Shown here: positions 937 through 41,073 of the stretch, piece by piece
Position numbering within the stretch: position 1 is the first letter of the stretch
How the letters are laid out: the number at the start of each line of letters is the position of its first letter
Assembly: GCA_025457615.1 (NCBI GenBank)
Contig: JALOTZ010000006.1
Location: forward strand, 63,866 to 127,865
Reading direction: 5' to 3'
Length of the DNA stretch: 64,000 nt
Origin: Verrucomicrobiota bacterium
Lineage (GTDB): Bacteria > Verrucomicrobiota > Verrucomicrobiia > Limisphaerales > DSYF01
Translations under genes and position numbers: made by a program
The notes under the pieces: generated by a model
What the model was told of the DNA's origin: nothing
Seen by the model: the letters and a program-made list of their open reading frames with translations, nothing else
The model's database searches: none

Positions 937-3691
937 TCCGGAAGAAGCACTGGCTGGCATTCCCGACTGGGCAGGTGGCCGTGGTTGTCAGGCCCATGGA
1001 CACCACCGCCGGTTCACTCTCGCTCCAATTTCCGCCTGTCAGATCCTCGGTCCACTCAACGCGATAAGAGGTGTTGGGGAGTGAGGTCCATTGCAGACAG
1101 GCAACTCCATTGCTGACCTGGATTGAGTTTATCACCGGCTGAGCCGCGACCACCGGGGAAGCCTGGGGCGCCAAGCGGCGGGTCTGCAAGCTGAGCGACC
1201 AACCTTGAAGCAGGAATCCAGTGTCCCCGGTGGAGTCGTCCACCAGGTAGAGAGACCACACGCCATTCGGATCGACCTCATTCAACACGGACAACGTGGT
1301 CGCGTGCGGGGCGGGCACCGGCAGCGCATCACCCGTCGCACCGATATTTGTCGGACGATATTCGCCGGACACCACCGTGCCGCTGCCCGGGAACTCCGCC
1401 GCTTCATCCCTGAAGCTCAGTTCCAACGCATCCGCCACGGCGCCGCCACCGGCATCCGAAAGCAGCATCACCTGCTGCCCGCCAGGCCCCACGAGCAGAA
1501 TGTCCAGGTCGTCCAGAAACCCGTGCGTCAGGCCGTGCAGTTGCACCCTCACCTGCTCTACGGCGCCTTCGATCCCGCTCACGAAGAGCTGGGCGGGAAA
1601 GACGCTGGCGTTGCCCTTGGTTCCGGCGGCGGGAACCAACAGGGAGGCGGTGTTTGAGAAGACATGCGTCTCGGTTACCAGGACGAGCCCGGAGGACGAT
1701 CCGGGAAGCAGGGTAAAGTCAGCGTCCGTCAGGTCGAAAAAGACACTGTGGCTGGCCCGCACCTTGATCCGGGCCTTGGCGGCATAGACGGCGGGCAGGG
1801 AGACCAGCTCGGATCCATCATTGGGGGTCTCCCGCGCCAACATCACCGGGAAGTCACCCCCCCCATTCGTCGAAAGCAGAATGTCCACGAAGGCGGCCGA
1901 GACGGGCGCAAGGTCCGTTCCCGCCACAGCCCACTGTATGATCTGCTCGCCGGACAACTCGCCGGCACCATTGGGAACCAACACCACGAAGGGTCCGGCA
2001 TTCGTTGTCACCGTCACCTGCAGGTCGTCCATGCCGAAGGCACCTCCGCCAACATGATTGTCCCTGGCCGTGACCCGGAAGTTCAGCACGCGAGCCGTGG
2101 TGGGCAGTACCTCAGACGGAGACGAAACATCGTTCAGCAGATCCTCGATGCACGGAAACGTCCGCGAAGCTGTCAGCACCGGTGGAAACGAGCGAAACAA
2201 CGGGCCGCTTCCGTGATCCTGCCCGTCCAACGCGGCAGCCCCGCCCAGATCCACCTGCTCCCAACCGTAGGTCAACAGATCCCCATCCGGATCGCTGCCC
2301 GTTGCCGTCAACTCGAACGGCGTGGCCATGGGGATCGTCAGGTCGGTTCCGGCGGAAACACTCGGCGCGGTGTTTCCCGTGCTCTGCGGCACCGCGGACC
2401 CGGCCCCGATGAAGCTCGCCATCTCCAGCAGGCTGGCCGAGTGAAAATACGCATCACTGCTGTACTGCAGGTTGTCTGTCCCGCAGATCCCCGAGTAGCT
2501 CATGATGGTGGATCCGCTCCCCGGCTCGAAGGCCGACGCTGGATGACGGTTGTTCGCGCTGCAACTACCCGCGATCCCATTGAAGGTGTGATGCGCGCCA
2601 AACTGATGACCGATTTCATGCGCGAGATAATCCACGTAGAAGGAGTCCCCGACGGGGCTGGCGCGGCCGGTGACGCCCCGGGCCTTCCAGCCATCCACAC
2701 CCGCACTGTTCAGCTGGGCCAACCCTCCCCCACCCGTTGCCAGGACGTGGCCAACGTCATAGTTCTCTCTGCCGATCACGCCGTCCAGGGTGGATTGGTT
2801 CTGCGACAACATGGCCGCCGCGTCAGCATTGCTGTAGGGATCAGTAGCGGCATTGAAAAACACCAGGCGATCGTTGTTCGAGACCAGGACAAAGCGAACG
2901 CCCAGTTCCGACTCGTAGATGCCGTTCAGCCGGTTGACAGCGGTCACAATGGCGGCCAGACCGCTCTCCACCGTCCCGCCATGGAACAACGTGTATTCAC
3001 CGGTCGCTGCCACCGCCAGACGATAGACACGCAGTGCGCCGTCAGATTGAACCCCGCCGCTCTGCAGGCTGGACGGATCTGGTGCGGTGGCCGTCAGGCA
3101 TTCGAAGCTTTCCTCCTCCGATCGCAACGCGTCTGAGGCATAGTAGGCGACATACTCCGCACCTTCGGAATCAGCCGGATCGAGATAGACACGACCACGC
3201 GGGCCCAGGACCTGGGCATGGAGTCTGCCCCGGTAAACATCCAAGCGAAGCCTCTCCGCCCCCCCCCCCAAGCCGACTCCGCGGTAGGTCTTGATGGCCG
3301 GGAATCGCGACGCCAGATCACTGGCCATGACCGGCGATTCGACAATCAGAAACCGCTCGGTCCGTCCATCCGGCATGGGCAATGACCATTCGACACCCTC
3401 GACAATCCTGCCCGACTCGCTCTCCTTCGGAGCGCGGCTGAGGACCGCTTGTGGCCGCGCTGCATCCAGGCGGAATCGGGTTCCTTGGGGAACGGGACGA
3501 AGCGTAGGCGTGTTGACCGGAGCCGAGTTTCCTCCTTCGATTCGACTCCACCCGTGCCATTCCTCGGGCTTTGGGTCGGCCTGCGCGGCGAAGCCTGCAG
3601 ACAACAAACCACCAGCCAACAACAAAGCCTGCAGACCCGCGGGACCTTCCAGCAGGCTCGGTGAACTGCGCCTTGAAACTGAATACGGCAT
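920..3691 (-). CDS. Secreted zinc metalloprotease (metzincin, reprolysin/M12B-like) with proprotein-convertase P-domain-like region and C-terminal beta-sandwich
   Basis: Track ORF 920..3781. Start moved to M31 (ATG 3691, MPYSVSRR), which precedes the signal-like LLLAGGLLSAGFAAQA. Contains the zinc site HEIGHQFGAHH (HExxHxxGxxH), a P-domain-like block LHGLTHGFLDDLDILLVGPGG, and a last ~72 aa ending CFFRIRVQP. Confidence 0.85.
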   Translation of the reverse strand: MPYSVSRRSSPSLLEGPAGLQALLLAGGLLSAGFAAQADPKPEEWHGWSRIEGGNSAPVNTPTLRPVPQGTRFRLDAARPQAVLSRAPKESESGRIVEGVEWSLPMPDGRTERFLIVESPVMASDLASRFPAIKTYRGVGLGGGAERLRLDVYRGRLHAQVLGPRGRVYLDPADSEGAEYVAYYASDALRSEEESFECLTATAPDPSSLQSGGVQSDGALRVYRLAVAATGEYTLFHGGTVESGLAAIVTAVNRLNGIYESELGVRFVLVSNNDRLVFFNAATDPYSNADAAAMLSQNQSTLDGVIGRENYDVGHVLATGGGGLAQLNSAGVDGWKARGVTGRASPVGDSFYVDYLAHEIGHQFGAHHTFNGIAGSCSANNRHPASAFEPGSGSTIMSYSGICGTDNLQYSSDAYFHSASLLEMASFIGAGSAVPQSTGNTAPSVSAGTDLTIPMATPFELTATGSDPDGDLLTYGWEQVDLGGAAALDGQDHGSGPLFRSFPPVLTASRTFPCIEDLLNDVSSPSEVLPTTARVLNFRVTARDNHVGGGAFGMDDLQVTVTTNAGPFVVLVPNGAGELSGEQIIQWAVAGTDLAPVSAAFVDILLSTNGGGDFPVMLARETPNDGSELVSLPAVYAAKARIKVRASHSVFFDLTDADFTLLPGSSSGLVLVTETHVFSNTASLLVPAAGTKGNASVFPAQLFVSGIEGAVEQVRVQLHGLTHGFLDDLDILLVGPGGQQVMLLSDAGGGAVADALELSFRDEAAEFPGSGTVVSGEYRPTNIGATGDALPVPAPHATTLSVLNEVDPNGVWSLYLVDDSTGDTGFLLQGWSLSLQTRRLAPQASPVVAAQPVINSIQVSNGVACLQWTSLPNTSYRVEWTEDLTGGNWSESEPAVVSMGLTTTATCPVGNASQCFFRIRVQP

Positions 3692-3945
3692 CTGGATACG
3701 TCGTGCCCCCCTCCTTCCGGCCCGTGCATTCTCAGATTCACTAAATCCATTGTGAACAGCCACTTCCGGAAGAAGCACCAACTGATCTGGTGTCTAAGCA
3801 ATGGACAAGCCAGTCCCAATCTTGGGAAGAGAGTATCGCACCGGGCGGGAGGTGACAGGAAGGAGGTTGCGGACAGTGCTTCCGCAGAAGCGCGGAGGAC
3901 ATATCCGGGGGGGATGGATTCAGCCCGACTGTTCCAGATGGCTCT

Positions 3946-6082: not shown

Positions 6083-9000
6083 ATGAAGACCACCGGCCTT
6101 GTTCTTGCCGCCCTCCTCGCTGGCGCGGCCTCGTCGTCCGCAACCATCCTGTCCGTCACGGGCAATGACACCCTGGTCGGCAACCACACCACGAACCTGA
6201 TTCTCAACGGCAGTTTTGAGGCAGACGGGGGCGTGGTGTCCAACGGCGCCTACTGGGCCACCGGCACCACCCTGACGCCCGCCTTCTCGCTGACCTCCTG
6301 GAGCGCCTCCGGCCAGTCCGGCAGCTACGCGCACTGGGGCAACGACGGGCTGGGCGGCATCAAGGGCAGCGCCCCGCTTCCGCACGGCACCAACGCCCTC
6401 TACTTTGGCGCGGGGATCATGCTTCTAGTCGCTCCCTTCCCCATCGAAGCCACCAACGGCCTGGTCACGTTCACCTCCACCCCCGCCATCCTGCCCAAGC
6501 CCGGGGACGGCCCGGTGACCTTGCAGCAGACCGTTTCGGGCCTGAACCCCGCCGCCACCTACCTGCTGGATTTCTGGACCAGTGGGGAGGATGTCGGGAA
6601 GCCAGAGATGGCCGTGGACGGCTTCTTCGGCCTGGACATCACCGGCGAACCGACGCTCTACTTCGCCGCCCCGAGCGGGAACGGCCTGGTGGGCGCCTCC
6701 CAGCGCTACCAAGTCTATTTCACGCCGACGGCCTCGACGGTGACGTTTCAATGGAGCAATTGGGGCCACGATGTGGATCCCAACGGGTTCGCCGACGAAC
6801 TGGTGCTGGACGACATCATCCTGAACAAGATCTCCGGCCCGGAGGACCCGTTGCTGTGCGGCTGCCTGACGAACATCACCGTCACCTGTCCCGCCGTGCT
6901 CCCAGACCTGTGCGCCCTGGCCACGAACTGCTTCACCACGAACATGCTGCCGGGGTCCTGCACACAGAACCTCCCGCCTGGAATGCCGGTGTCCGTGGGC
7001 ACCTACGTCCTCAACCTGCAGGTGCTGGATCTCCAGAGCAACGCGTTCTCGTGTCCCGTGACGTTCACGGTGGTTCCGCCATCGAATGCGCCGCCGCTGA
7101 CCGTCCTCTGTTCCACGAACAAGACTGTCGAGTGTGGAAGCGAGTGGGACTTCGATCCGCCGGTCGTCACCTCGTTCTGCTGCGGGCTGACGATCACGCC
7201 GAACGACATCGTGGTGAGCAACAGCCCCTGTTCCCAGAGCCTCACCCGCACCTGGTTGATCACCGACGGCTGCGGCAACACCACCAGTTGCAGCCAGGAG
7301 GTGACCCTGGTGGACACCACGCCGCCGGGCACGCAATGTGACGGCCAGAACCTGGTGCCGAACGGCGGCTTCGAGCGCTACACCAACTGCCCCTCCTCCA
7401 TCTCGCAGTTCGCCTTCGCCGCGCCGTGGTTCACGCCGACCGACGCCACGACGGATTACTACAACAGTTGCTCCGGCGCCGGCTCGTTCGTCACCACGCC
7501 GACCAACAGCGTGGGCGTGCAGGCGCCGTTAAGCGGACAGGCCTACGCGGGCGCGGCGCTCTACACGACGTTCGGCACCAACCCCACCAATTCCTACCGG
7601 GAGTATCTCGAAGTGCCGCTGCTCACGAGCTTGACCGCCGGACAACAATACCTCGTGTCGTTTTACGTGAGCCGGGCGGAGTATTTCGGCCAGGCCATCG
7701 CGGACATCGGGGCGAAATTCTTCCCGATGCCATTCGTCAATTACGGCCCGTTGAGCAATGCCTACACAGGCGTGCTCGTGCACCCGATTCCCCCGCAGGT
7801 CGCCAATCCGCCGAGCAACATGCTCACCGACTCGACCAACTGGACGCTCATTCAGGGCCTGTACACCGCCATCGGCTGGGAAACGCACCTGGTCCTGGGC
7901 AATTTCAAGGATGACCCCGGCACCACCGCCACGCTGGTCGGGGGCCAGGACAACAACTACGCCTACTACTACTTTGACAACGTCTCGGTGGTCGCGGTGT
8001 GCGATCCAGCGATGACGAACCAGGTCGTGCAATGCGGCACGCCTTGGGAGATTCCGCCGTTCCCGGTCTTCGACAACTGCAACGGCGGCAACATCACCGT
8101 GTCAAACTACACCGCGACGAACGGGTATTGTCCCACGGTGGTGCAGCGCGACTGGTATCTGGCCGACCCCTGCGGGAACACGAACAGGTTCACCCAGACG
8201 GTGACCATCGTGGACACGAACCCGCCGCAGCTCCTGTGCGCCGCCGGGGCCAACCTGGCGCCCAATCCGCAGTTTGAAAACTACGCCTTCTGTCCCTTCA
8301 ACTTCTCGCAGGTGTCCGCTGCCGGGCCGTGGTTCAATCCGACCGTCGCCACGCCGGACTACCTGAACACCTGCTCCTCGTTCCCCGCCGCACAGGTGCC
8401 GAACAACCTGCTGGGCAGCCAGACCCCGTTCAGCGGCAATGGCTACATGGGCGCGTACGCCTACTCCGTTTACGGGACCAACCCGGTGCCCGGCTACCGC
8501 GAGTATCTCGAGGCGCCCCTGCTTGTCCCGTTGCAGGCGGGCCAGCAGTACCAGGTTTCCTTCCGTGTCTGCCTGGCCGACACGTCCGGCTGGTCCATCA
8601 GCGATCTGGGCGCGCATTTCTCTGTCGGCCCAGTGCTGAACGGCTCGAGCGAAGGGCCCTTGAACGTCGTCCCGCAGGTTGCCAATCCGCCCGGTAACCT
8701 GCTCACCAACCAGACCGGTTGGATGCTCGTGCAGGGCGTGTTCACCGCGGCGGGCGGCGAGGACCACATCACGCTCGGCAATTTCCTCGATGACGCCTCC
8801 ACCCTGGCGGTGACCAACGCGTCCGGCACCAACCACACGTATTACTACTACGACGACATCGCGGTCGTGCCGTTGTGCGAGTTCACGAACAAATTCGTGG
8901 CCTGCGAGTCCGTGTGGGAATTTGACACGCCGCTGGCCTACGACAGTTGCAGCGGCGAATACCTCTCCACCTTCGTCACCAGCACGACGACCAGCGGCAC

Positions 9001-30219: not shown

Positions 30220-30426
30220 TTCAATGTTGTTCACGGCGCATGCGTCCGCTGGAAAACGCGGGCTCGCGGTCGGAGGCAGACACACCCCTCCCGAGGGATC
30301 CCGATTCAGGTTCGAGTTACGGCCGGTTTTTCCGGACCGGATTTGGTTTACCGCAGGGCCGGTTGTCGCCGTGAGGCGGCCAGCGGCCTGCGATGGCCCC
30401 ACGCGAAGGCGAGCCGCCGCACCCTT

Positions 30427-30442
30427 GGCAGTTTCCGTGCCG
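30427..30442 (-). promoter_or_regulatory. Candidate sigma-54 promoter upstream of the FN3-protein operon
   Basis: The minus strand reads CGGCACGgaaaCTGCC with exact GG-N10-GC spacing, 5/6 at -24, and CTGC for TTGC at -12. It lies ~210 nt upstream of the proposed start and downstream of the activator gene. Confidence 0.35.
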
Positions 30443-30537
30443 CGACTGGGAGGTTTCCGAAACGCACTCCATCAACCACTTGCGAAATGGAGCTGCAGGA
30501 GAGGTGGCCCTGCGAAGACCCGCTGTGGAATGAATCA

Positions 30538-30559
30538 AGCCAGCGAAGGATCACTGGCT
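30538..30559 (-). terminator. Weak hairpin just after the response-regulator stop
   Basis: AGCCAG / CTGGCT 6-bp stem with a 10-nt loop. The minus-strand tail TGATTCATT is only moderately T-rich. Confidence 0.25.
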
Positions 30560-30572
30560 CAACACCAGGACA

Positions 30573-32003
<1,431 letters not shown>

Positions 32004-33496
32004 GTTCTTCCACATGCGGCAGCACGACCGTAAACGTCGCCCCACCCTCGTCGTGGTTCTGGTAACGGATCAACCCGCCGTGTTTCTCGATGATCCGCGC
32101 GGCGATGGGCAGGCCGAGCCCCGTGCCGCCTTCCTTGGTGGTGAAGAATGGATCGAACAAGCGCGTCTCCAGCTCCGGCGCAATGCCTTTGCCCGTATCG
32201 GTGACCTCCAGGGCCGCCAGACCCTGCCGATGCCGCGATGGGGCGCGTTCCTGGCGGACGCGCAGCGTGATCTCCCCGCCGTGTTTGATGCTCTCGGCGG
32301 CGTTCTGGATGAGGTTGATCATGACCTGTTTGATCTGGTGCGGGTCCGCGCGGACCCACAGCGGTTCGCTCTCCTCCAGTTTAAGCTCGATCTGGTTCTT
32401 GGCGAGCTGGGGCTTCAGCAGGGCCTGCACTTCCTGGAGGAGCCGCTGGGCCGGCACGCTCACCAACTCGGGCTCTGAGGGGCGCGCAAACCTCAGGAAA
32501 TCCTCCACAATCCGCTCCAACCGGTCCAGTTCGCCGGCAATCACCCGCACGTCCTCATCCTCCGAATCGCTCCCCGGCAAGGCCTGTTGCAGGCTGAAAA
32601 GCCGGAACCGGATGGCGGTGAGGGGATTACGGATTTCGTGCGCCACGCCGGCAGCCAGCGCTCCCAAGGACGCGAGCTTCTCCTGCCGTTCCAGCGTCCG
32701 GTGACTTTCGATGAGCTGGCGTCGCAGCGGGTCGATCATCCCGCGATACATCAACAGCAACAGCATCAAGGCCAGCACCACCACCAATCCCACGGACAGC
32801 AGAAGCACCCGTTGAAAGGTCTTCAATGTGGCGTCGGATTTTGCCAGGAAGGTGTCGAAGGAGGACCGCTGCTGCGCAATATACTCATCGCACAAGGAGA
32901 GCAGCGGCTCCGACAAGGCCTGCACTTGCTGGTAATCCTCGGGGAACATGTAGTCCTTTCCCTGAAACAATTTCGGAAAGAAGGAGGTTTGTCTGACCAG
33001 AATCTTCTTGGCTTCCCTCGCATAGTCTCCGTAAGCCACCGCGATCCGCTGGGCATAGTCCCGTTCCACCGCCGTCGCGGCATTGGTCTGAAATCCACCC
33101 AGCCATTTCTCCAGTTCCTGTGTTCCCTCGAGGAAACTGTCCCGATCCTCCTCCCTCCCATCCCTCCGATAGCGCAACAGGGTATCCTTCAGGCGCAACA
33201 CGCTGCTCTGGATGCGGACGCCCCAGTAGAAATTGTCCGCTTGCATCCCGGTGAACTCCCGCTTCAGGCCGTCCACCCGGATCCACGTGGCCCGGCTGAC
33301 GCCCAGCAGCATCAGGATGGTCACGAGGAAAATGCCCAGCACCAAACCGAACAATCCTATCCTTACTTTGGGCCCACCACGGGTGGTCGGCGGGGAACCA
33401 GCCGTGGAATAAAATGTATCACTCATCTAGGGTTCAAACCGGGTGGAGAGCTCGCCCTGCCCTCACGTTCCGTAGCGCAGGATGCCAAGCGGCCTC

Positions 33497-33513
33497 TGGC
33501 ACAGCAATCGCTA
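33497..33513 (+). promoter_or_regulatory. Near-consensus sigma-54 promoter on the plus strand
   Basis: cTGGCACagcaaTCGCt: TGGCAC is exact (33497-33502). GG at 33498-33499 and GC at 33510-11 give GG-N10-GC. One mismatch to TTGC. Confidence 0.55.
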
Positions 33514-33522
33514 GACCACGGC

Positions 33523-33635
33523 CCGTGCGGGGAGGGACACCCCCCGCACATCTCACCCAGTAACCTGCCGGGCGCAAGCCGCGTCGGGTTGTTAATCGAG
33601 CCGCCCCGCCTCCGGGGCGGCTCGATTGTTTTTCG
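33523..33635 (+). ncRNA. Candidate sigma-54-dependent small RNA (~110 nt)
   Basis: Bounded by the sigma-54 promoter at 33497 and the terminator at 33594-33633. No ORF. 5' hairpin GTGCGGGG/CCCCGCAC (33525-33549) followed by the unpaired stretch AUCUCACCCAGUAACCUG. Both flanking genes are on the opposite strand. Confidence 0.45.
33594..33635 (+). terminator. Strong plus-strand intrinsic terminator
   Basis: Perfect 15-bp stem AATCGAGCCGCCCCG / CGGGGCGGCTCGATT, loop CCTC, tail GTTTTTCG. The minus-strand reading lacks a U-tail (AACAACCC). Confidence 0.8.
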
Positions 33636-33719
33636 AACCGCCCAGGACCAACTTTTTGTCCCTCCTGAAACAAGCGGTTGCACGAAAGCGAGTCCGGGCA
33701 GCCCCCATTCCGTTGAAGG

Positions 33720-34769
33720 TTACCGGACCTTGTGCGCCGTTGCCCCGCCTTCGTCCTGACCAACCGTGATGCGAATGGTCTTGGGGTCGCCGCTGAAGTC
33801 GAACTGGGCCTGCACATCCACGGTCTTGGCAAAAAAGCGGGTTGGCGATTCGGCGAACATCACCAACTCCACCCCGCCGAAATGGACCAGGAGGTTCCCG
33901 CTGCGCCGGCTGACTTCCGCGACCCGGCGGCCCCCGCTTTCATAGACGCCGCAGTAGCTGTCCAGCCGTGCGTCCGGCAGTTGAAACTCCGGTTTGCCGG
34001 CCGCCCCCAACTCGCGCACCCAGATGTTGCGGTAGCGCACCGGATTGCCGTGGTCCTGGAGCGCGATCGGCTGCTTCTCCGGATGCGGCTTGAGCGGCGG
34101 ACGGTTTAACCAGGCCGTCTCGCCAAACAAGGGCGTGTGGTGTTGTATCAACACCCCGTTGTGAAAGGCGGTCATCCGCGGCGGCGCCAGCAATGTCCCG
34201 TCCTCGGCAAACCGGGGCGGTGTCCACAGGAGGTCATAGGTCTGCCACTCACCCGGCGGGCGGGAGGCGTTGACCAGGGGCGGATACTGATTATAGATGC
34301 TGCCGCACGAACCGTCGGCATAGGTGGTGTTCTGGAAGGAATCCAGCACCTGGATCTCGTACCGGGTGCCGCCCAGGAACACGCCGCTGTTGCCCCGGCC
34401 CTGACCCGATCCCTCCGCCGGGAGCGGCGCGGCAAACTCGAGGTGCAACTGACATTCGCCGAAGCATTGCAGTGTGCGGATGTAACCGCTGCCGGGCACA
34501 CACTCCATCGCACCATTCTTGACCACCCACTGGGTCGGCTGGCCATCCAACGCCACCCAGGGGGAAAGATCGGCCCCCTCGAACAACACGACCGCATCGG
34601 ACGGCGCCTTGCCCGCGCGCTCCGGCGTGCTGGGCCGCCCGGGATCCACCACGGGCGGCAACGGCCGGGTGCGGTCGTGACCGAGCGGCAGCGGATTCGG
34701 GATGGCGGTTTGGGCCGTAAGCAGGGCCGGACTGACGAGCCAGACCAGGATGACCAGTGGGGGCTTCAT
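33720..34769 (-). CDS. DUF1080 (3-keto-disaccharide hydrolase-like, LamG/jelly-roll) domain protein, secreted
   Basis: Track ORF 33720..35114. ATG 34769 (M116, MKPPLVILVWLVSPALLTAQT signal). Blocks W.VKNGAMEC, FGECQLHLEF, NSGVFL, YEIQVLDS, IALQDHGNPVRYRNIWVREL. Confidence 0.8.
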   Translation of the reverse strand: MKPPLVILVWLVSPALLTAQTAIPNPLPLGHDRTRPLPPVVDPGRPSTPERAGKAPSDAVVLFEGADLSPWVALDGQPTQWVVKNGAMECVPGSGYIRTLQCFGECQLHLEFAAPLPAEGSGQGRGNSGVFLGGTRYEIQVLDSFQNTTYADGSCGSIYNQYPPLVNASRPPGEWQTYDLLWTPPRFAEDGTLLAPPRMTAFHNGVLIQHHTPLFGETAWLNRPPLKPHPEKQPIALQDHGNPVRYRNIWVRELGAAGKPEFQLPDARLDSYCGVYESGGRRVAEVSRRSGNLLVHFGGVELVMFAESPTRFFAKTVDVQAQFDFSGDPKTIRITVGQDEGGATAHKVR

Positions 34770-35007
34770 GCGTGATGCGTGGGTTGAAGGTGTTCGCCAG
34801 GGGATAAAACCAGACGCGGCATGGGTTTTCAATCGCCGTTTGCGTATCGTTGGGGGACGTCGATTCTCCGATTGGCTCACGTGCGCAACCCCGTTAAGTT
34901 CAAGTCCGAACGCCACAAGCCACATGCGCCTCTCCTGCTTCAACCGATCCAAACCCGGCGATGCCGCCGCCGAAAGCGGGGCTTCGCTCCGGGACTGGAA
35001 CCAAACC

Positions 35008-36270
35008 ATGGAAAACGCCGCCGCCCGGGAGTTGTTGCGCAGCGAATTCCACCGGGCGTCGCTGCTGCTGATCACCGCGCTGCTCCTGATCCTGGCCGGC
35101 TTGACCATCTTCACGGTCGGGCGTGACGACTCGCCCCATCTGCAGGCCCGCCTGACACGCGGCGTACTGATGCTGGGAGCTTTGGCTGTCTATGAAGGCG
35201 TGGTGCTGGCCTGGCTGGTTCGGTGGCGCCGACAGCACCAGCCCTCACCCTGGAAGTTTCGCTATGGAAACACCCTGATTGAGCTCACGCTGCCCGCCGC
35301 GGCTTTGTTGCTGATCGGCAGTCAGGTCGGCCTTGCGCAGGCGCTGCTGGGTGGCGCGCCTTTCCTGCTGTTCATCCTCGTCGTGCTTTCCGCACTCTAC
35401 CTCGACTTCTGGCTCTGCGTGTTCGCGGGCTTCATCGCCGCGTCGGAATTCCTGGGTCTCTCCATCCTGGGGGTCCGCTCCGTGGAACCGGTTGCCGGCT
35501 GGGAACTCCTCACCTCCCCGGCCACCTATTGGATCAAGTCAACCATGCTGCTCATGACCGGGTTGGCCTGCGGATTTGTCGCCGTGCAAACCAAGCGCCA
35601 GATGTGGGCGGCGACGCGATCGGTCGCCGAGCGCGACCGCGCCATCAGTATGTTTGGCCAGCACGTCTCGCCGCAGGTGGCCCACCTGCTGCTCCGCCAA
35701 CCCGTCGAGTTCTGCGGCGAGCAACGCCGGGTGTGCGTGATGTTCCTGGACATCCGCGACTTCAGCCGCATGGCGGGCGAGCGCACCCCCGGCGAGGTGG
35801 TCCAATACCTCAACACCCTCTTCGGCGAACTGATCAAGGTCGTCAACCGCCACCAGGGTATCGTCAACAAGTTCCTCGGCGACGGCTTCATGGCGGTGTT
35901 CGGCGCGCCGGTGAATGATTCCGGGCAGGCGGTGCATGCGGTGGAGGCTTCCCTGGAAATGCTGCGGACCGTCGAAACACTCAATGGGGCCGAAAAGATC
36001 CCGCCCACGCGCATCGGCATCGGGCTGCACATGGGCGAGGCGGTGACCGGCAACGTGGGGTCGAGCGAGCGCAAGGAATACACCATCATCGGCGACGTGG
36101 TGAACCTGGCCTCGCGCATCGAGCAGGCCACCAAACAATTCGACGCCCGGCTGCTGGTCTCCCATGCCGTTCAACAGCAACTCGACGCCGCCCGCTATCC
36201 GGCCGAGGACCTCGGTGAGGTGACGCTGAAAGGCCAGGCCAGGCCGGCCCGACTATTCCGGCTGGCCTGA
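35008..36270 (+). CDS. Membrane-anchored class III adenylate/guanylate cyclase
   Basis: Multiple N-terminal TM segments, then a CHD domain: VMFLDIRDFS, KFLGDGFMAVFGAP, IGIGLHMGEAVTGNVGS, EYTIIGDVVNLASRIE. Start 35008 (alternative 34924). Confidence 0.85.
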   Translation: MENAAARELLRSEFHRASLLLITALLLILAGLTIFTVGRDDSPHLQARLTRGVLMLGALAVYEGVVLAWLVRWRRQHQPSPWKFRYGNTLIELTLPAAALLLIGSQVGLAQALLGGAPFLLFILVVLSALYLDFWLCVFAGFIAASEFLGLSILGVRSVEPVAGWELLTSPATYWIKSTMLLMTGLACGFVAVQTKRQMWAATRSVAERDRAISMFGQHVSPQVAHLLLRQPVEFCGEQRRVCVMFLDIRDFSRMAGERTPGEVVQYLNTLFGELIKVVNRHQGIVNKFLGDGFMAVFGAPVNDSGQAVHAVEASLEMLRTVETLNGAEKIPPTRIGIGLHMGEAVTGNVGSSERKEYTIIGDVVNLASRIEQATKQFDARLLVSHAVQQQLDAARYPAEDLGEVTLKGQARPARLFRLA

Positions 36271-39537: not shown

Positions 39538-41073
39538 TCAGGCCCGGCCCTGGGCGGCGAAATGCTCCGCCAGGGCGATGGCTTGGATCATCGCCTTGGA
39601 CTTGTTGACCGTTTCCTGGAACTCGGCCTCGGGATCCGAGTCGGCCACCCAGCCGCCACCGGCCTGCACACAGGCCCGACCGTCCTTCAACAGGGCGGTG
39701 CGAATGGTGATGCAACAGTCCAGATTCCCATTGAACCCGAAGTAGCCGACGCACCCGCCATAGGGACCGCGGGCGGTCTGTTCCAGCTCCGAGATGATCT
39801 GCATGGCGCGGATCTTGGGCGCCCCGCTCAGGGTGCCGGCCGGGAACGTGGCCCGCATCAGATCGTAAGGATTGTGCTCCGCGGACAACCGCCCCTCCAC
39901 CTGGGACACGATGTGCATCACGTGGCTGTAGCGCTCGATGATCATCAGGTCCTTGACCTGCACCGTGCCAAAGTCGCACACCCGCCCGATGTCGTTCCGG
40001 GCCAGGTCCACCAACATGACGTGCTCGGCCCGTTCCTTGGGATCCGCCAACAGTTCCTGTTCCAGCGCGCGGTCCTCCGCTTCCGTGGCACCGCGCTTGC
40101 GCGTCCCGGCGATCGGACGAATCTCCACACGCCGGTTCTCGCACCGCACATGGATCTCAGGCGAGGCACCCACCAGGGAAAAGCCGTCGAGCTCGAGCAA
40201 GAACATGTAGGGCGAGGGATTGATGGTGCGGGCCGCGCGATACACGTCGAGCGCACTCGCGGTCACGGGGGCGGAGAACCGCTGGGATCCGACCACCTGG
40301 ATGATGTGCCCGGCGCCGATGTATTCCTTGGCCTTGACCACGTTGGCCAGCAGCCGTTCCTTGGGCAGGTTGGACTCGAACCGGATCGGCGGCACGACAG
40401 CCGGAACGCCGGCGGGAGCGTAGGCGGCCGGCTGCGCGAGCAAAGCCAGGATGCGCTCGACTTCCTCACACGCCTCCTCGTAGGCCTGTTCAACCGGGGT
40501 GGATCCGTCCAGAAACGCGTTCACCAACACGGTGATGGTCTGCTCGACGCGGTCGAACACCAGCACCTGGTCGGCAATGATGAAGTAGATCACGGGCGTG
40601 CCGAGGTCGTCGCCCGGCGGACGCGGCACCACCGGCTCGATATCGTGGATGAATTCATAGCCGATGAATCCGACGGCTCCTCCGGTGAAGACCGGCAGGC
40701 CCGGCAGCGAGACCGGCCGATAGCGGCTCATGACCTTCCGCACCACCTCCAACCCGTCACGCACACAGGGTTCGCACCCCGGTTCCGGCTCGCGGCAAAC
40801 CCGAAACGTCCCGGTCACCGTCCCGTCCTCGGCTACCTCGACCCGGTCCCCGGTCTGCCGGATGGTGACCCGCGGATTGCACCCGACGAAGGAGTAGCGA
40901 CCGAGGCGTTCGCCGCCCTCGACGGATTCGAGCAGGAAGGATTCGCCTTCGCCACGGATCTTGCGGTAGGCGGACAGAGGAGTTTCGAAATCAGCCAGGA
41001 TGCGGCGTGAGACCGGCACCAGGTTGCCTTGCGCGGCCAGTTTCAAGAATTCATCAAGTGATGGAGAATACAT
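39538..41073 (-). CDS. trpE: Anthranilate synthase component I
   Basis: N-terminus LVPVSRRILADFETPLSAYRK...SFLLESVEGGERLGRYSFVG. Chorismate-binding C-terminal blocks GAPKIRAMQIISELE, RGPYGGCVGYF, IRTALL. Confidence 0.9.
   Translation of the reverse strand: MYSPSLDEFLKLAAQGNLVPVSRRILADFETPLSAYRKIRGEGESFLLESVEGGERLGRYSFVGCNPRVTIRQTGDRVEVAEDGTVTGTFRVCREPEPGCEPCVRDGLEVVRKVMSRYRPVSLPGLPVFTGGAVGFIGYEFIHDIEPVVPRPPGDDLGTPVIYFIIADQVLVFDRVEQTITVLVNAFLDGSTPVEQAYEEACEEVERILALLAQPAAYAPAGVPAVVPPIRFESNLPKERLLANVVKAKEYIGAGHIIQVVGSQRFSAPVTASALDVYRAARTINPSPYMFLLELDGFSLVGASPEIHVRCENRRVEIRPIAGTRKRGATEAEDRALEQELLADPKERAEHVMLVDLARNDIGRVCDFGTVQVKDLMIIERYSHVMHIVSQVEGRLSAEHNPYDLMRATFPAGTLSGAPKIRAMQIISELEQTARGPYGGCVGYFGFNGNLDCCITIRTALLKDGRACVQAGGGWVADSDPEAEFQETVNKSKAMIQAIALAEHFAAQGRA

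Follow-up and report, generated by a model that had tools for sequence, protein, structure and literature searches.

The stretch of DNA analysed here, referred to throughout as the window, comprises 64,000 nucleotides of a Verrucomicrobiota contig (JALOTZ010000006.1). Within it, a 293-bp spacer (33427-33719) has a minus-strand gene on each side: a sensor histidine kinase gene, which is followed in its operon by the gene for an NtrC-family sigma-54 activator, and a gene starting at 33720 for a protein with 3keto-disac_hyd (DUF1080) and DUF3471 domains. A preliminary description of this DNA had reported the spacer and its two minus-strand neighbours, with which the coordinates and domain assignments agree, and had proposed that the spacer encodes a candidate small RNA (sRNA) of ~110 nt, divergent from the sigma-54 two-component operon. 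Conservation, covariation, strand and linkage to the kinase gene are all in agreement with this proposal, and we regard it as close to certain that the plus strand encodes a real, conserved structured RNA. The features of the locus are as follows.

33497..33511, plus strand: sigma-54-type promoter core TGGCACagcaaTCGC, with the -24 box TGGCAC at 33497-33502 and the -12 box TCGC at 33508-33511
33512..33518, plus strand: invariant heptamer TAGACCA, directly behind the -12 box and ahead of the predicted start, identical in 9/9 aligned sequences
33523..33635, plus strand: predicted primary transcript of ~113 nt, its start placed by the usual sigma-54 spacing, 12 nt after the GC
33525..33549, plus strand: stem-loop 1 (SL1), 10 pairs with one bulge and a 4-nt loop
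33550..33561, plus strand: conserved single strand AUCUCACCCAGU, candidate seed (AUCUCACUCAGU in relatives)
33561..33591, plus strand: stem-loop 2 (SL2), variable in length and sequence, directly after CAGU in 9/9 sequences
33593..33628, plus strand: stem-loop 3 (SL3), the terminator stem in the window copy, 16 pairs (11 of them G-C) with a 4-nt loop
33629..33635, plus strand: U-rich tail TTTTTCG, not conserved
33404..33422, no strand assigned: UAS-A, candidate activator-binding site, an imperfect 19-bp dyad GTGGAATAAAATGTATCAC in kinase codons 2-8, its centre at about -110 from the predicted start
31972..33426, minus strand: sensor histidine kinase with HisKA and HATPase_c domains, divergent from the RNA gene
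30573..32003, minus strand: NtrC-family sigma-54 activator, presumed regulator, with receiver, Sigma54_activat, AAA-lid and HTH_8 domains

Full-length relatives of the kinase are numerous, and those that are named belong to the Verrucomicrobiota. DNA was fetched around kinase orthologs, whose identity of 51-100% anchors the comparison. In eight independent lineages (kinase identity 59-100%) the element was found upstream of the orthologous kinase gene and pointing away from it; these sRNA-type lineages are the window itself, L001, L002, L003, L084, L104/L105, L106/L107 and L108. A covariance model built from eight sequences, with L108 outside the model, scored 132.8 bits at the window RNA and 106.6 bits at L108. 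Covariation of the hairpins in related genomes had been named beforehand as a check and was borne out: in a nine-sequence alignment of SL1 and SL3, 94.7% of cells were paired, as against 26-48% when the partners were slid by 1-3 columns, and 17 of the 26 pairs were compensated, with changes on both sides, values that none of 500 shuffles attained. SL2 was present throughout. Read as the plus strand, the same alignment contained 28 G·U cells versus 5 A·C, and this asymmetry places the RNA on the plus strand, as had been proposed.

The gene on the far side of the element differs between lineages. It encodes a DUF1080 protein in the window and L001, a TM2 protein in L003, L084 and L106, a ferritin in L002 and a cyclase-like protein in L104, and is another gene again in L108. 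Since the far-side gene changes while the element stays, the element belongs with the kinase, and its last hairpin is not merely the terminator of the DUF1080 mRNA. In the window, L001, L003, L084 and L106 the element and the gene beyond it converge; in L002, L104 and L108 that gene is co-directional and lies 300-360 nt downstream, the three genes being mutually unrelated. The L104 gene (177 aa; 1835-2368, minus strand), which lies downstream of the RNA, matches N- and C-terminal parts (35152-35415 and 36052-36267, plus strand) of an adenylate/guanylate cyclase open reading frame (ORF) at 34702-36270 of the window. On this evidence the RNA may have had the cyclase as an earlier neighbour, DUF1080 standing between the two in the window.

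Wider searches were also made. A scan of genome contigs with generic HisKA peptides gave mostly paralogs, L004-L009 being useful. In metagenomes, a gapped promoter pattern gave no loci and a second pattern gave only the ORF-type loci described below and chance loci; neither yielded an sRNA-type locus. Some records with kinase homologs bore unexpected taxon labels, namely Bifidobacteriaceae (L006), Klebsiella (L021) and Nitrosotalea (P0021). L021 matches the generic C-terminal kinase core only, and the labels on full-length kinase matches possibly reflect mis-binned contigs of metagenome-assembled genomes.

The fold of the window RNA, taken from 33523 to 33640 (118 nt), has three hairpins and an energy of -69.3 kcal/mol (z = -6.3 relative to dinucleotide shuffles); the corresponding values for the reverse complement are -67.6 kcal/mol and z = -5.1. 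The 5' hairpin of the preliminary description is present at 33525-33549, with 10 pairs and one bulge in place of the 8 bp given there. Across nine sequences, 9 of the 10 SL1 pairs changed on both sides and 90.6% of cells were paired. The 12 nt that follow, AUCUCACYCAGU, carry a single substitution in the nine sequences and are unpaired in each individual fold, while the flanking stems vary freely; a near-invariant stretch between variable stems is the signature of a functional single-stranded site. The unpaired seed suggested earlier was longer, and the rest of it, AACCUG, is in fact the 5' arm of SL2. In the window, a change from GGC to AAC in that arm is compensated by a change from GUC to GUU in the 3' arm.

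SL3 had been described as a perfect terminator with a 15-bp stem at 33594-33627. The hairpin is called here at 33593-33628 with 16 pairs and the same 4-nt loop, and in the window it is followed by TTTTTCGAAC, so that stem, loop and U-tract all stand for this copy. It is also specific to one orientation, the minus-strand tail having no U-run. As a general trait the description does not hold: six lineages have tails of the GGUUG(U/C)GUAC type, with one or two U in the first 8 nt, and the only other U-rich tail, TTTCTC in L084, is weaker. The SL3 hairpins of L003, L084 and L106 were not called terminator-like. The stem itself is well preserved, with 14-16 G+C-rich pairs across lineages, 97.2% of cells paired and 8 of 16 pairs changed on both sides. 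Right after SL3, (U/C)GUAC occurs in 6/8 lineages (L001 ~3757-3768, L002 ~2308-2320, L003 ~3793-3804, L104, L106 and L108) and might serve, in this clade specifically, as a signal for processing or termination. The exact termini given for the RNA, 5' as well as 3', are predicted.

As claimed earlier, the interval between promoter and terminator is free of ORFs, in that none starts on the plus strand between the predicted start site and SL3. A 390-aa mechanical ORF runs antisense across the kinase gene and the whole spacer (32587-33759, plus strand); such antisense ORFs are typical of high-G+C sequence, and this one is probably not a real gene. The same is probably true of a called 166-aa gene without a Pfam match that overlaps the RNA in L003 (3410-3910, minus strand). 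Rfam 15, whose models include the known sigma-54-dependent sRNAs, gave 0 matches at gathering score over the whole 64 kb, in line with the earlier failure to recognise a known RNA family, and a search of 451 nt with E up to 10 gave generic hairpin matches only, the best being mir-486 with 21 bits against a cut-off of 69. No second copy of the RNA was found in the window or in 35 sources. RNAalifold offered a pairing of the promoter block with the seed region, which was rejected: its columns are all invariant, 4 of its 12 pairs are broken without compensation in the window, and the promoter is probably not transcribed.

The promoter agrees in sequence with what had been claimed for it, namely an exact TGGCAC, an exact GG-N10-GC spacing (GG at 33498-99, GC at 33510-11) and one mismatch to TTGC. 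Inspection of the syntenic spacers, another of the suggested checks, found the GG-N10-GC box kept in eight lineages with orthologous kinases. Within the sRNA-type lineages the core GGCACAGCA(A/T)TCGCTAGACCA is invariant apart from the A/T position and its flanks diverge; the full invariant block reads (T/C)GGCACAGCA(A/T)TCGC, then TAGACCA. The position of TAGACCA is not normally conserved in sigma-54 promoters, and the ORF-type loci have TAGTCC there. We consider it very likely that the promoter of the element is a sigma-54 promoter, and the RNA gene is very probably sigma-54 dependent. A perfect TGGCAC-N5-TTGC match, TGGCACCGCGCTTGC, lies elsewhere in the window at 40086-40100 (plus strand).

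Between the -24 box and the kinase start, most sRNA-type loci also have a conserved TTGGCA-N17-TGAGGG in the minus-strand reading (33460-33488 in the window), possibly the kinase operon's own promoter. Together with the -24 box, its TTGGCA makes up a palindrome, TGCCA-N9-TGGCA, and because of this palindrome the kinase promoter and the sigma-54 promoter may compete for occupancy. A minus-strand sigma-54 promoter starting from TTGGCAT was considered and rejected, as by hand inspection the GG-N10-GC spacing fits in one locus only.

Kinase orthologs at 51-56% identity have the same box at the same distance (~65 nt) from the kinase start, followed by a different cargo. These ORF-type loci are L004, L086 and L087/88, together with the metagenomic L091, L093-L095, L097-L099 and L101-L103. 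Their box is CTGGCACAGCAACCGCTAG (core form CTGGCACAGCAACCGC), with L004 as the exception (TGGCACGCAACGCGCTAG). It is followed by a conserved ORF of ~116-126 aa (MKTQ...AKPATR...MRPQTAL) and then by a gene for a single-domain CheY-like receiver, both read in the direction of the promoter, as in these two loci:

L087, 2506-2856 and 2036-2470, minus strand: ORF and CheY-like gene in place of the sRNA
L095, 1950-2330 and 2341-2793, plus strand: ORF and CheY-like gene in place of the sRNA

The same cargo was seen in L004, L086, L093, L094, L099 and L103. The 116-126-aa protein has no Pfam match, and no homolog of the 116-aa protein is encoded in the window. L085 (~2290-2470), with a 56% kinase ortholog, has a degraded box, CTGCAGGCGCAGCATCGCTGGTCC, in which the spacing is broken; there is no divergent unit, and a convergent GH31 gene abuts. 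The more distant kinase homologs L005 and L009 also have divergent sigma-54-like boxes.

A cargo that is directional, and that differs between clades, supports the identification of the box as a promoter. Since the 51-56% orthologs keep the same promoter with a protein-coding cargo, the promoter is older than the RNA, and comparison of the loci suggests that the RNA may have replaced a protein-coding cargo in one clade. Somewhat speculatively, the output of the two-component system might have been rewired from protein to RNA: promoter and dyad would serve the small ORF and CheY-like gene in most Verrucomicrobiota orthologs, whereas in that clade the sRNA, possibly derived from an old 5' leader, would have taken their place, and a second sigma-54 promoter there (see below) would yield a further structured RNA or leader. 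The kinase/activator pair would then have an RNA output on either side, with one activator site common to both. By eye, the stretch ahead of the ORF in ORF-type loci, AACCTCAAAYCCCAGAC (e.g. L095 ~1915-1970), resembles a single strand, GAACCAAACCCAGACC, in the leader behind the second promoter (e.g. L003 ~7095-7115) and, more loosely and again by eye, the sRNA seed ATCTCACYCAGT. The likeness among the three may go back to a common ancestor or to a signal, for protein binding or translation, that they share.

We then consider the regulator. The activator encoded at 30573-32003 matches Pfam Sigma54_activat (PF00158) at 5e-73 and has an intact GAFTGA sigma-54 contact loop within ERGAFTGAQ. It scored below the cut-off of every named NCBIfam equivalog (357.8 bits for GlrR, against a cut-off of 763). 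Downstream of its gene lies the second promoter, P2, with a dyad upstream of it:

30428..30442, minus strand: P2, second sigma-54-type promoter CGGCACGGAAACTGC, past the end of the activator gene and directed towards the fn3 gene
30525..30543, minus strand: UAS-B, 19-bp dyad CTGGCTTGATTCATTCCAC, upstream of P2

P2 is conserved as CGG(C/T)ACG-N4-CTGC in 6/6 sRNA-type loci that reach that far, and in all six the UAS-B 19-mer, (G/C)TGGTTCGATTCATTCCAC, begins exactly 100-101 nt upstream of it. A weight matrix was made from these six non-coding P2-upstream sites only and used to scan both strands of the 250 nt upstream of the sRNA promoter. Its best match was UAS-A, 91-93 nt from the -24 T, in 8/8 sRNA-type lineages (11-18 bits; shuffle p <= 0.01 each). 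Most ORF-type loci have their best match at 92-94 nt, in some cases on the opposite strand, showing the site to be an imperfect dyad. A dyad shared by both promoters at enhancer distance is what would be expected if the activator encoded between them controls both. The earlier nomination of this activator as candidate regulator is thus supported by its GAFTGA motif and by the common dyad, and it probably regulates the RNA gene.

P2 precedes a structured leader, ~190 nt in the window and up to ~250 nt in relatives, ahead of an fn3/DUF3999-like gene with a GTG start near 30234 (minus strand). Within the leader, the single strand GAACCAAAYCC (30351->30339) is conserved and a hairpin occupies 30340->30320; a further conserved block, GCAAGTGGTTGATGG (30483->30469), lies upstream of P2. 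The whole P2 unit (30320-30543, minus strand; L001 ~6866-7100 and L003 ~6907-7140) may encode another small RNA or form a leader that is regulated.

Taken together, these results are consistent with a model in which a non-coding RNA of ~110 nt is transcribed independently from the spacer, is driven by sigma-54 and the activator, and acts by base-pairing; as a complete explanation we consider this fairly probable. The membrane histidine kinase (31972-33426) would sense a signal and phosphorylate the NtrC-family activator (30573-32003), which would bind the 19-bp dyad at 33404-33422 (~-110), overlapping the first kinase codons. The bound activator would drive open-complex formation by sigma-54 RNA polymerase at TGGCAC-N5-TCGC (33497-33511), with transcription predicted to begin near 33523 and, in the window copy, to end at SL3 and its U-run (33593-33635). 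The 12-nt AUCUCACYCAGU between SL1 and SL2 would then most likely pair with one or more mRNAs encoded elsewhere. Whether the RNA is indeed a trans base-pairing sRNA we judge to be an evenly balanced question.

Several points weigh against this model. Within a single sequence the promoter match is no more frequent than chance would give: one-mismatch matches to TGGCAC-N5-TTGC number 8 in the window versus 6.4 expected, a count reached in 26 of 100 shuffles. The -12 box of the promoter is TCGC, not TTGC. The significance of the element derives from conservation and covariation in related loci and not from the promoter match. The sample is of eight lineages only, all of them uncultured organisms known from metagenomes. 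UAS-A overlaps coding sequence, and part of its conservation could be protein constraint. The U-tract has no counterpart in 6/8 lineages, so that the 3' end is uncertain in the relatives. Finally, neither the kinase and fn3 starts, nor the TM2 5' regions, nor the window at large showed conserved target complementarity, although with a search covering 64 kb and a few neighbouring genes the absence of a target carries little weight.

Three candidate targets were tried and rejected. At the kinase start, UGAGUGA could face the seed's UCACUCA; the pairing is broken, without compensation, in the window (seed U to C), L003 and L084 (ATGACTGA). Pairing at the fn3 start (GUGAAGAU) is possible only with a bulge and does not survive in the window, and the best duplexes lie at inconsistent positions among loci. 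The duplexes in the TM2 5' regions were likewise inconsistent. Window-wide, 11-mers complementary to the seed numbered 3 versus 1.2 expected, and none was at a minus-strand gene start.

These searches bear on the possibility that the RNA is sigma-54 dependent and titrates an RNA-binding protein with no mRNA pairing. GlmY acts by protein mimicry, involving RapZ, and not by base-pairing. CrcZ, which works on Hfq/Crc, and GlmY are both linked to sigma-54 and two-component systems (PMC8871633; PMC3045617), no mRNA target turned up within the region searched, and the conserved C/A-rich single strand could bind a protein. However, there is a single conserved unpaired motif, with no repeated GGA or A-rich motifs, and the missing target is a weak argument when the search was so small. 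We consider a protein-sequestering RNA unlikely.

Alternatively, the RNA might be a cis-acting leader or attenuator of the downstream gene, with SL3 as a conditional terminator. Such a role would fit the lack of a U-tract after SL3 in most lineages, the co-directional genes 300-360 nt downstream in L002 (ferritin), L104 (cyclase-like) and L108, and the mRNA driven by the same promoter in more distant orthologs. Against this, convergence of the next gene in the window, L001, L003, L084 and L106 leaves nothing to read into, the three co-directional genes are unrelated to each other, and the folds offer no alternative anti-terminator pairing. With unrelated co-directional genes in three lineages and a convergent neighbour in five, a general leader role is improbable.

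It is also conceivable that promoter and dyad are kept in order to regulate the back-to-back kinase promoter, the transcript being a functionless by-product. The promoter is indeed older than the RNA, and its -24 box lies 9 nt from the conserved kinase-strand TTGGCA, in the palindrome described above. A functionless transcript would nevertheless not retain three hairpins, 17 compensated pairs and an invariant 12-nt single strand, and we regard this explanation as very improbable.

Two explanations remain. In the first, SL3 ends the convergent gene (DUF1080 in the window) and the TGGCAC is coincidental. The promoter motif does occur at chance frequency in the window, and SL3 lies 93 nt past the DUF1080 stop and ~20-35 nt past the TM2 stop in L084 and L106, positions from which a secondary role as a bidirectional terminator is possible. 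Yet the element is present with any neighbour, the convergent gene of L003 has a separate terminator of its own at 3745-3760, the minus-strand tail has no U-run, and promoter, SL1, seed and SL2 are conserved too, which leaves this account with hardly any credibility. Equally remote is the second, that the structure is the 5' untranslated region of the kinase mRNA: the reverse complement folds well (see above) and read-through from the co-directional DUF1080 gene is conceivable, but the 5 A·C cells, which are the G·U of the minus reading, stand against 28 on the plus reading, the invariant block is a sigma-54 promoter match that drives an ORF away from the kinase in relatives, and the upstream neighbours vary in strand and identity.

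The preferred reading, a sigma-54-driven sRNA gene beside its own two-component system, has precedents. A search of the literature gave no report of sigma-54-dependent or other small RNAs in Verrucomicrobiota and, to our knowledge, regulatory RNAs are almost uncharted in this major soil, freshwater and gut phylum. The placement had been likened to qrr1/luxO and glmY/glrK-glrR; the design does match, with the window RNA standing outside those families.

In Vibrio, qrr1 lies 151 bp upstream of luxO in the opposite direction, with the activator and sigma-54 sites in a short shared region (PMC8043402). The locus described here is similar in that an sRNA gene of ~100-110 nt, with a single-stranded seed and a 3' stem-loop, lies beside and divergent from an NtrC-family activator locus. 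It differs in that the divergent gene is the kinase, with the activator second in the operon, and the candidate activator site is inside coding sequence; moreover, a single copy was seen, there is no Rfam sequence or structure match, and the phylum is different. Pxr of Myxococcus has three stem-loops and, besides a predicted sigma-54 promoter, an enhancer region further upstream; it is syntenic and co-evolved with the NtrC-like pxrR and with pxrK (PMC5684412). Here, too, a three-hairpin RNA with a sigma-54-type promoter adjoins an NtrC-like regulator/kinase pair. However, pxr is downstream of pxrR, whereas the window RNA is divergent from the kinase, and there is no Rfam-level similarity. In Pxr the functional parts that are conserved comprise SL1, SL2 and 8 bp within SL3; in the RNA described here, conservation is highest in the unpaired strand that joins SL1 to SL2.

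In Enterobacteriaceae, glmY always adjoins glrK-yfhG-glrR, and GlrR drives it through upstream binding sites (PMC3045617), so that again an sRNA gene adjoins a two-component operon with a sigma-54 activator. In contrast, glmY has three GlrR sites and IHF sites, often with an overlapping sigma-70 promoter, and no homology to the window RNA was detected. CrcZ of Pseudomonadaceae is sigma-54 dependent, adjoins cbrAB with conserved synteny and is directly activated by the response regulator (PMC8871633); it resembles the present case as a regulatory RNA encoded beside its own two-component system. Unlike the window RNA, it is encoded downstream of cbrB, is much longer, and sequesters Hfq/Crc through repeated A-rich motifs, of which the window RNA has none.

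The window RNA follows the design of Qrr1, Pxr, GlmY and CrcZ, yet belongs to none of their families, since it has no covariance-model similarity to known families and its activator is below every named equivalog cut-off; the family is so far undescribed. The locus offers a compact, testable circuit, from sensor kinase to sigma-54 activator to sRNA, with promoter, candidate activator site, seed and structure at nucleotide resolution, and the sister lineages with a protein-coding cargo on the same promoter provide a natural experiment in swapping a protein output for an RNA. It also extends to a new phylum the arrangement, common to Qrr1, Pxr, GlmY and CrcZ, of an sRNA encoded beside its own sigma-54 two-component system.

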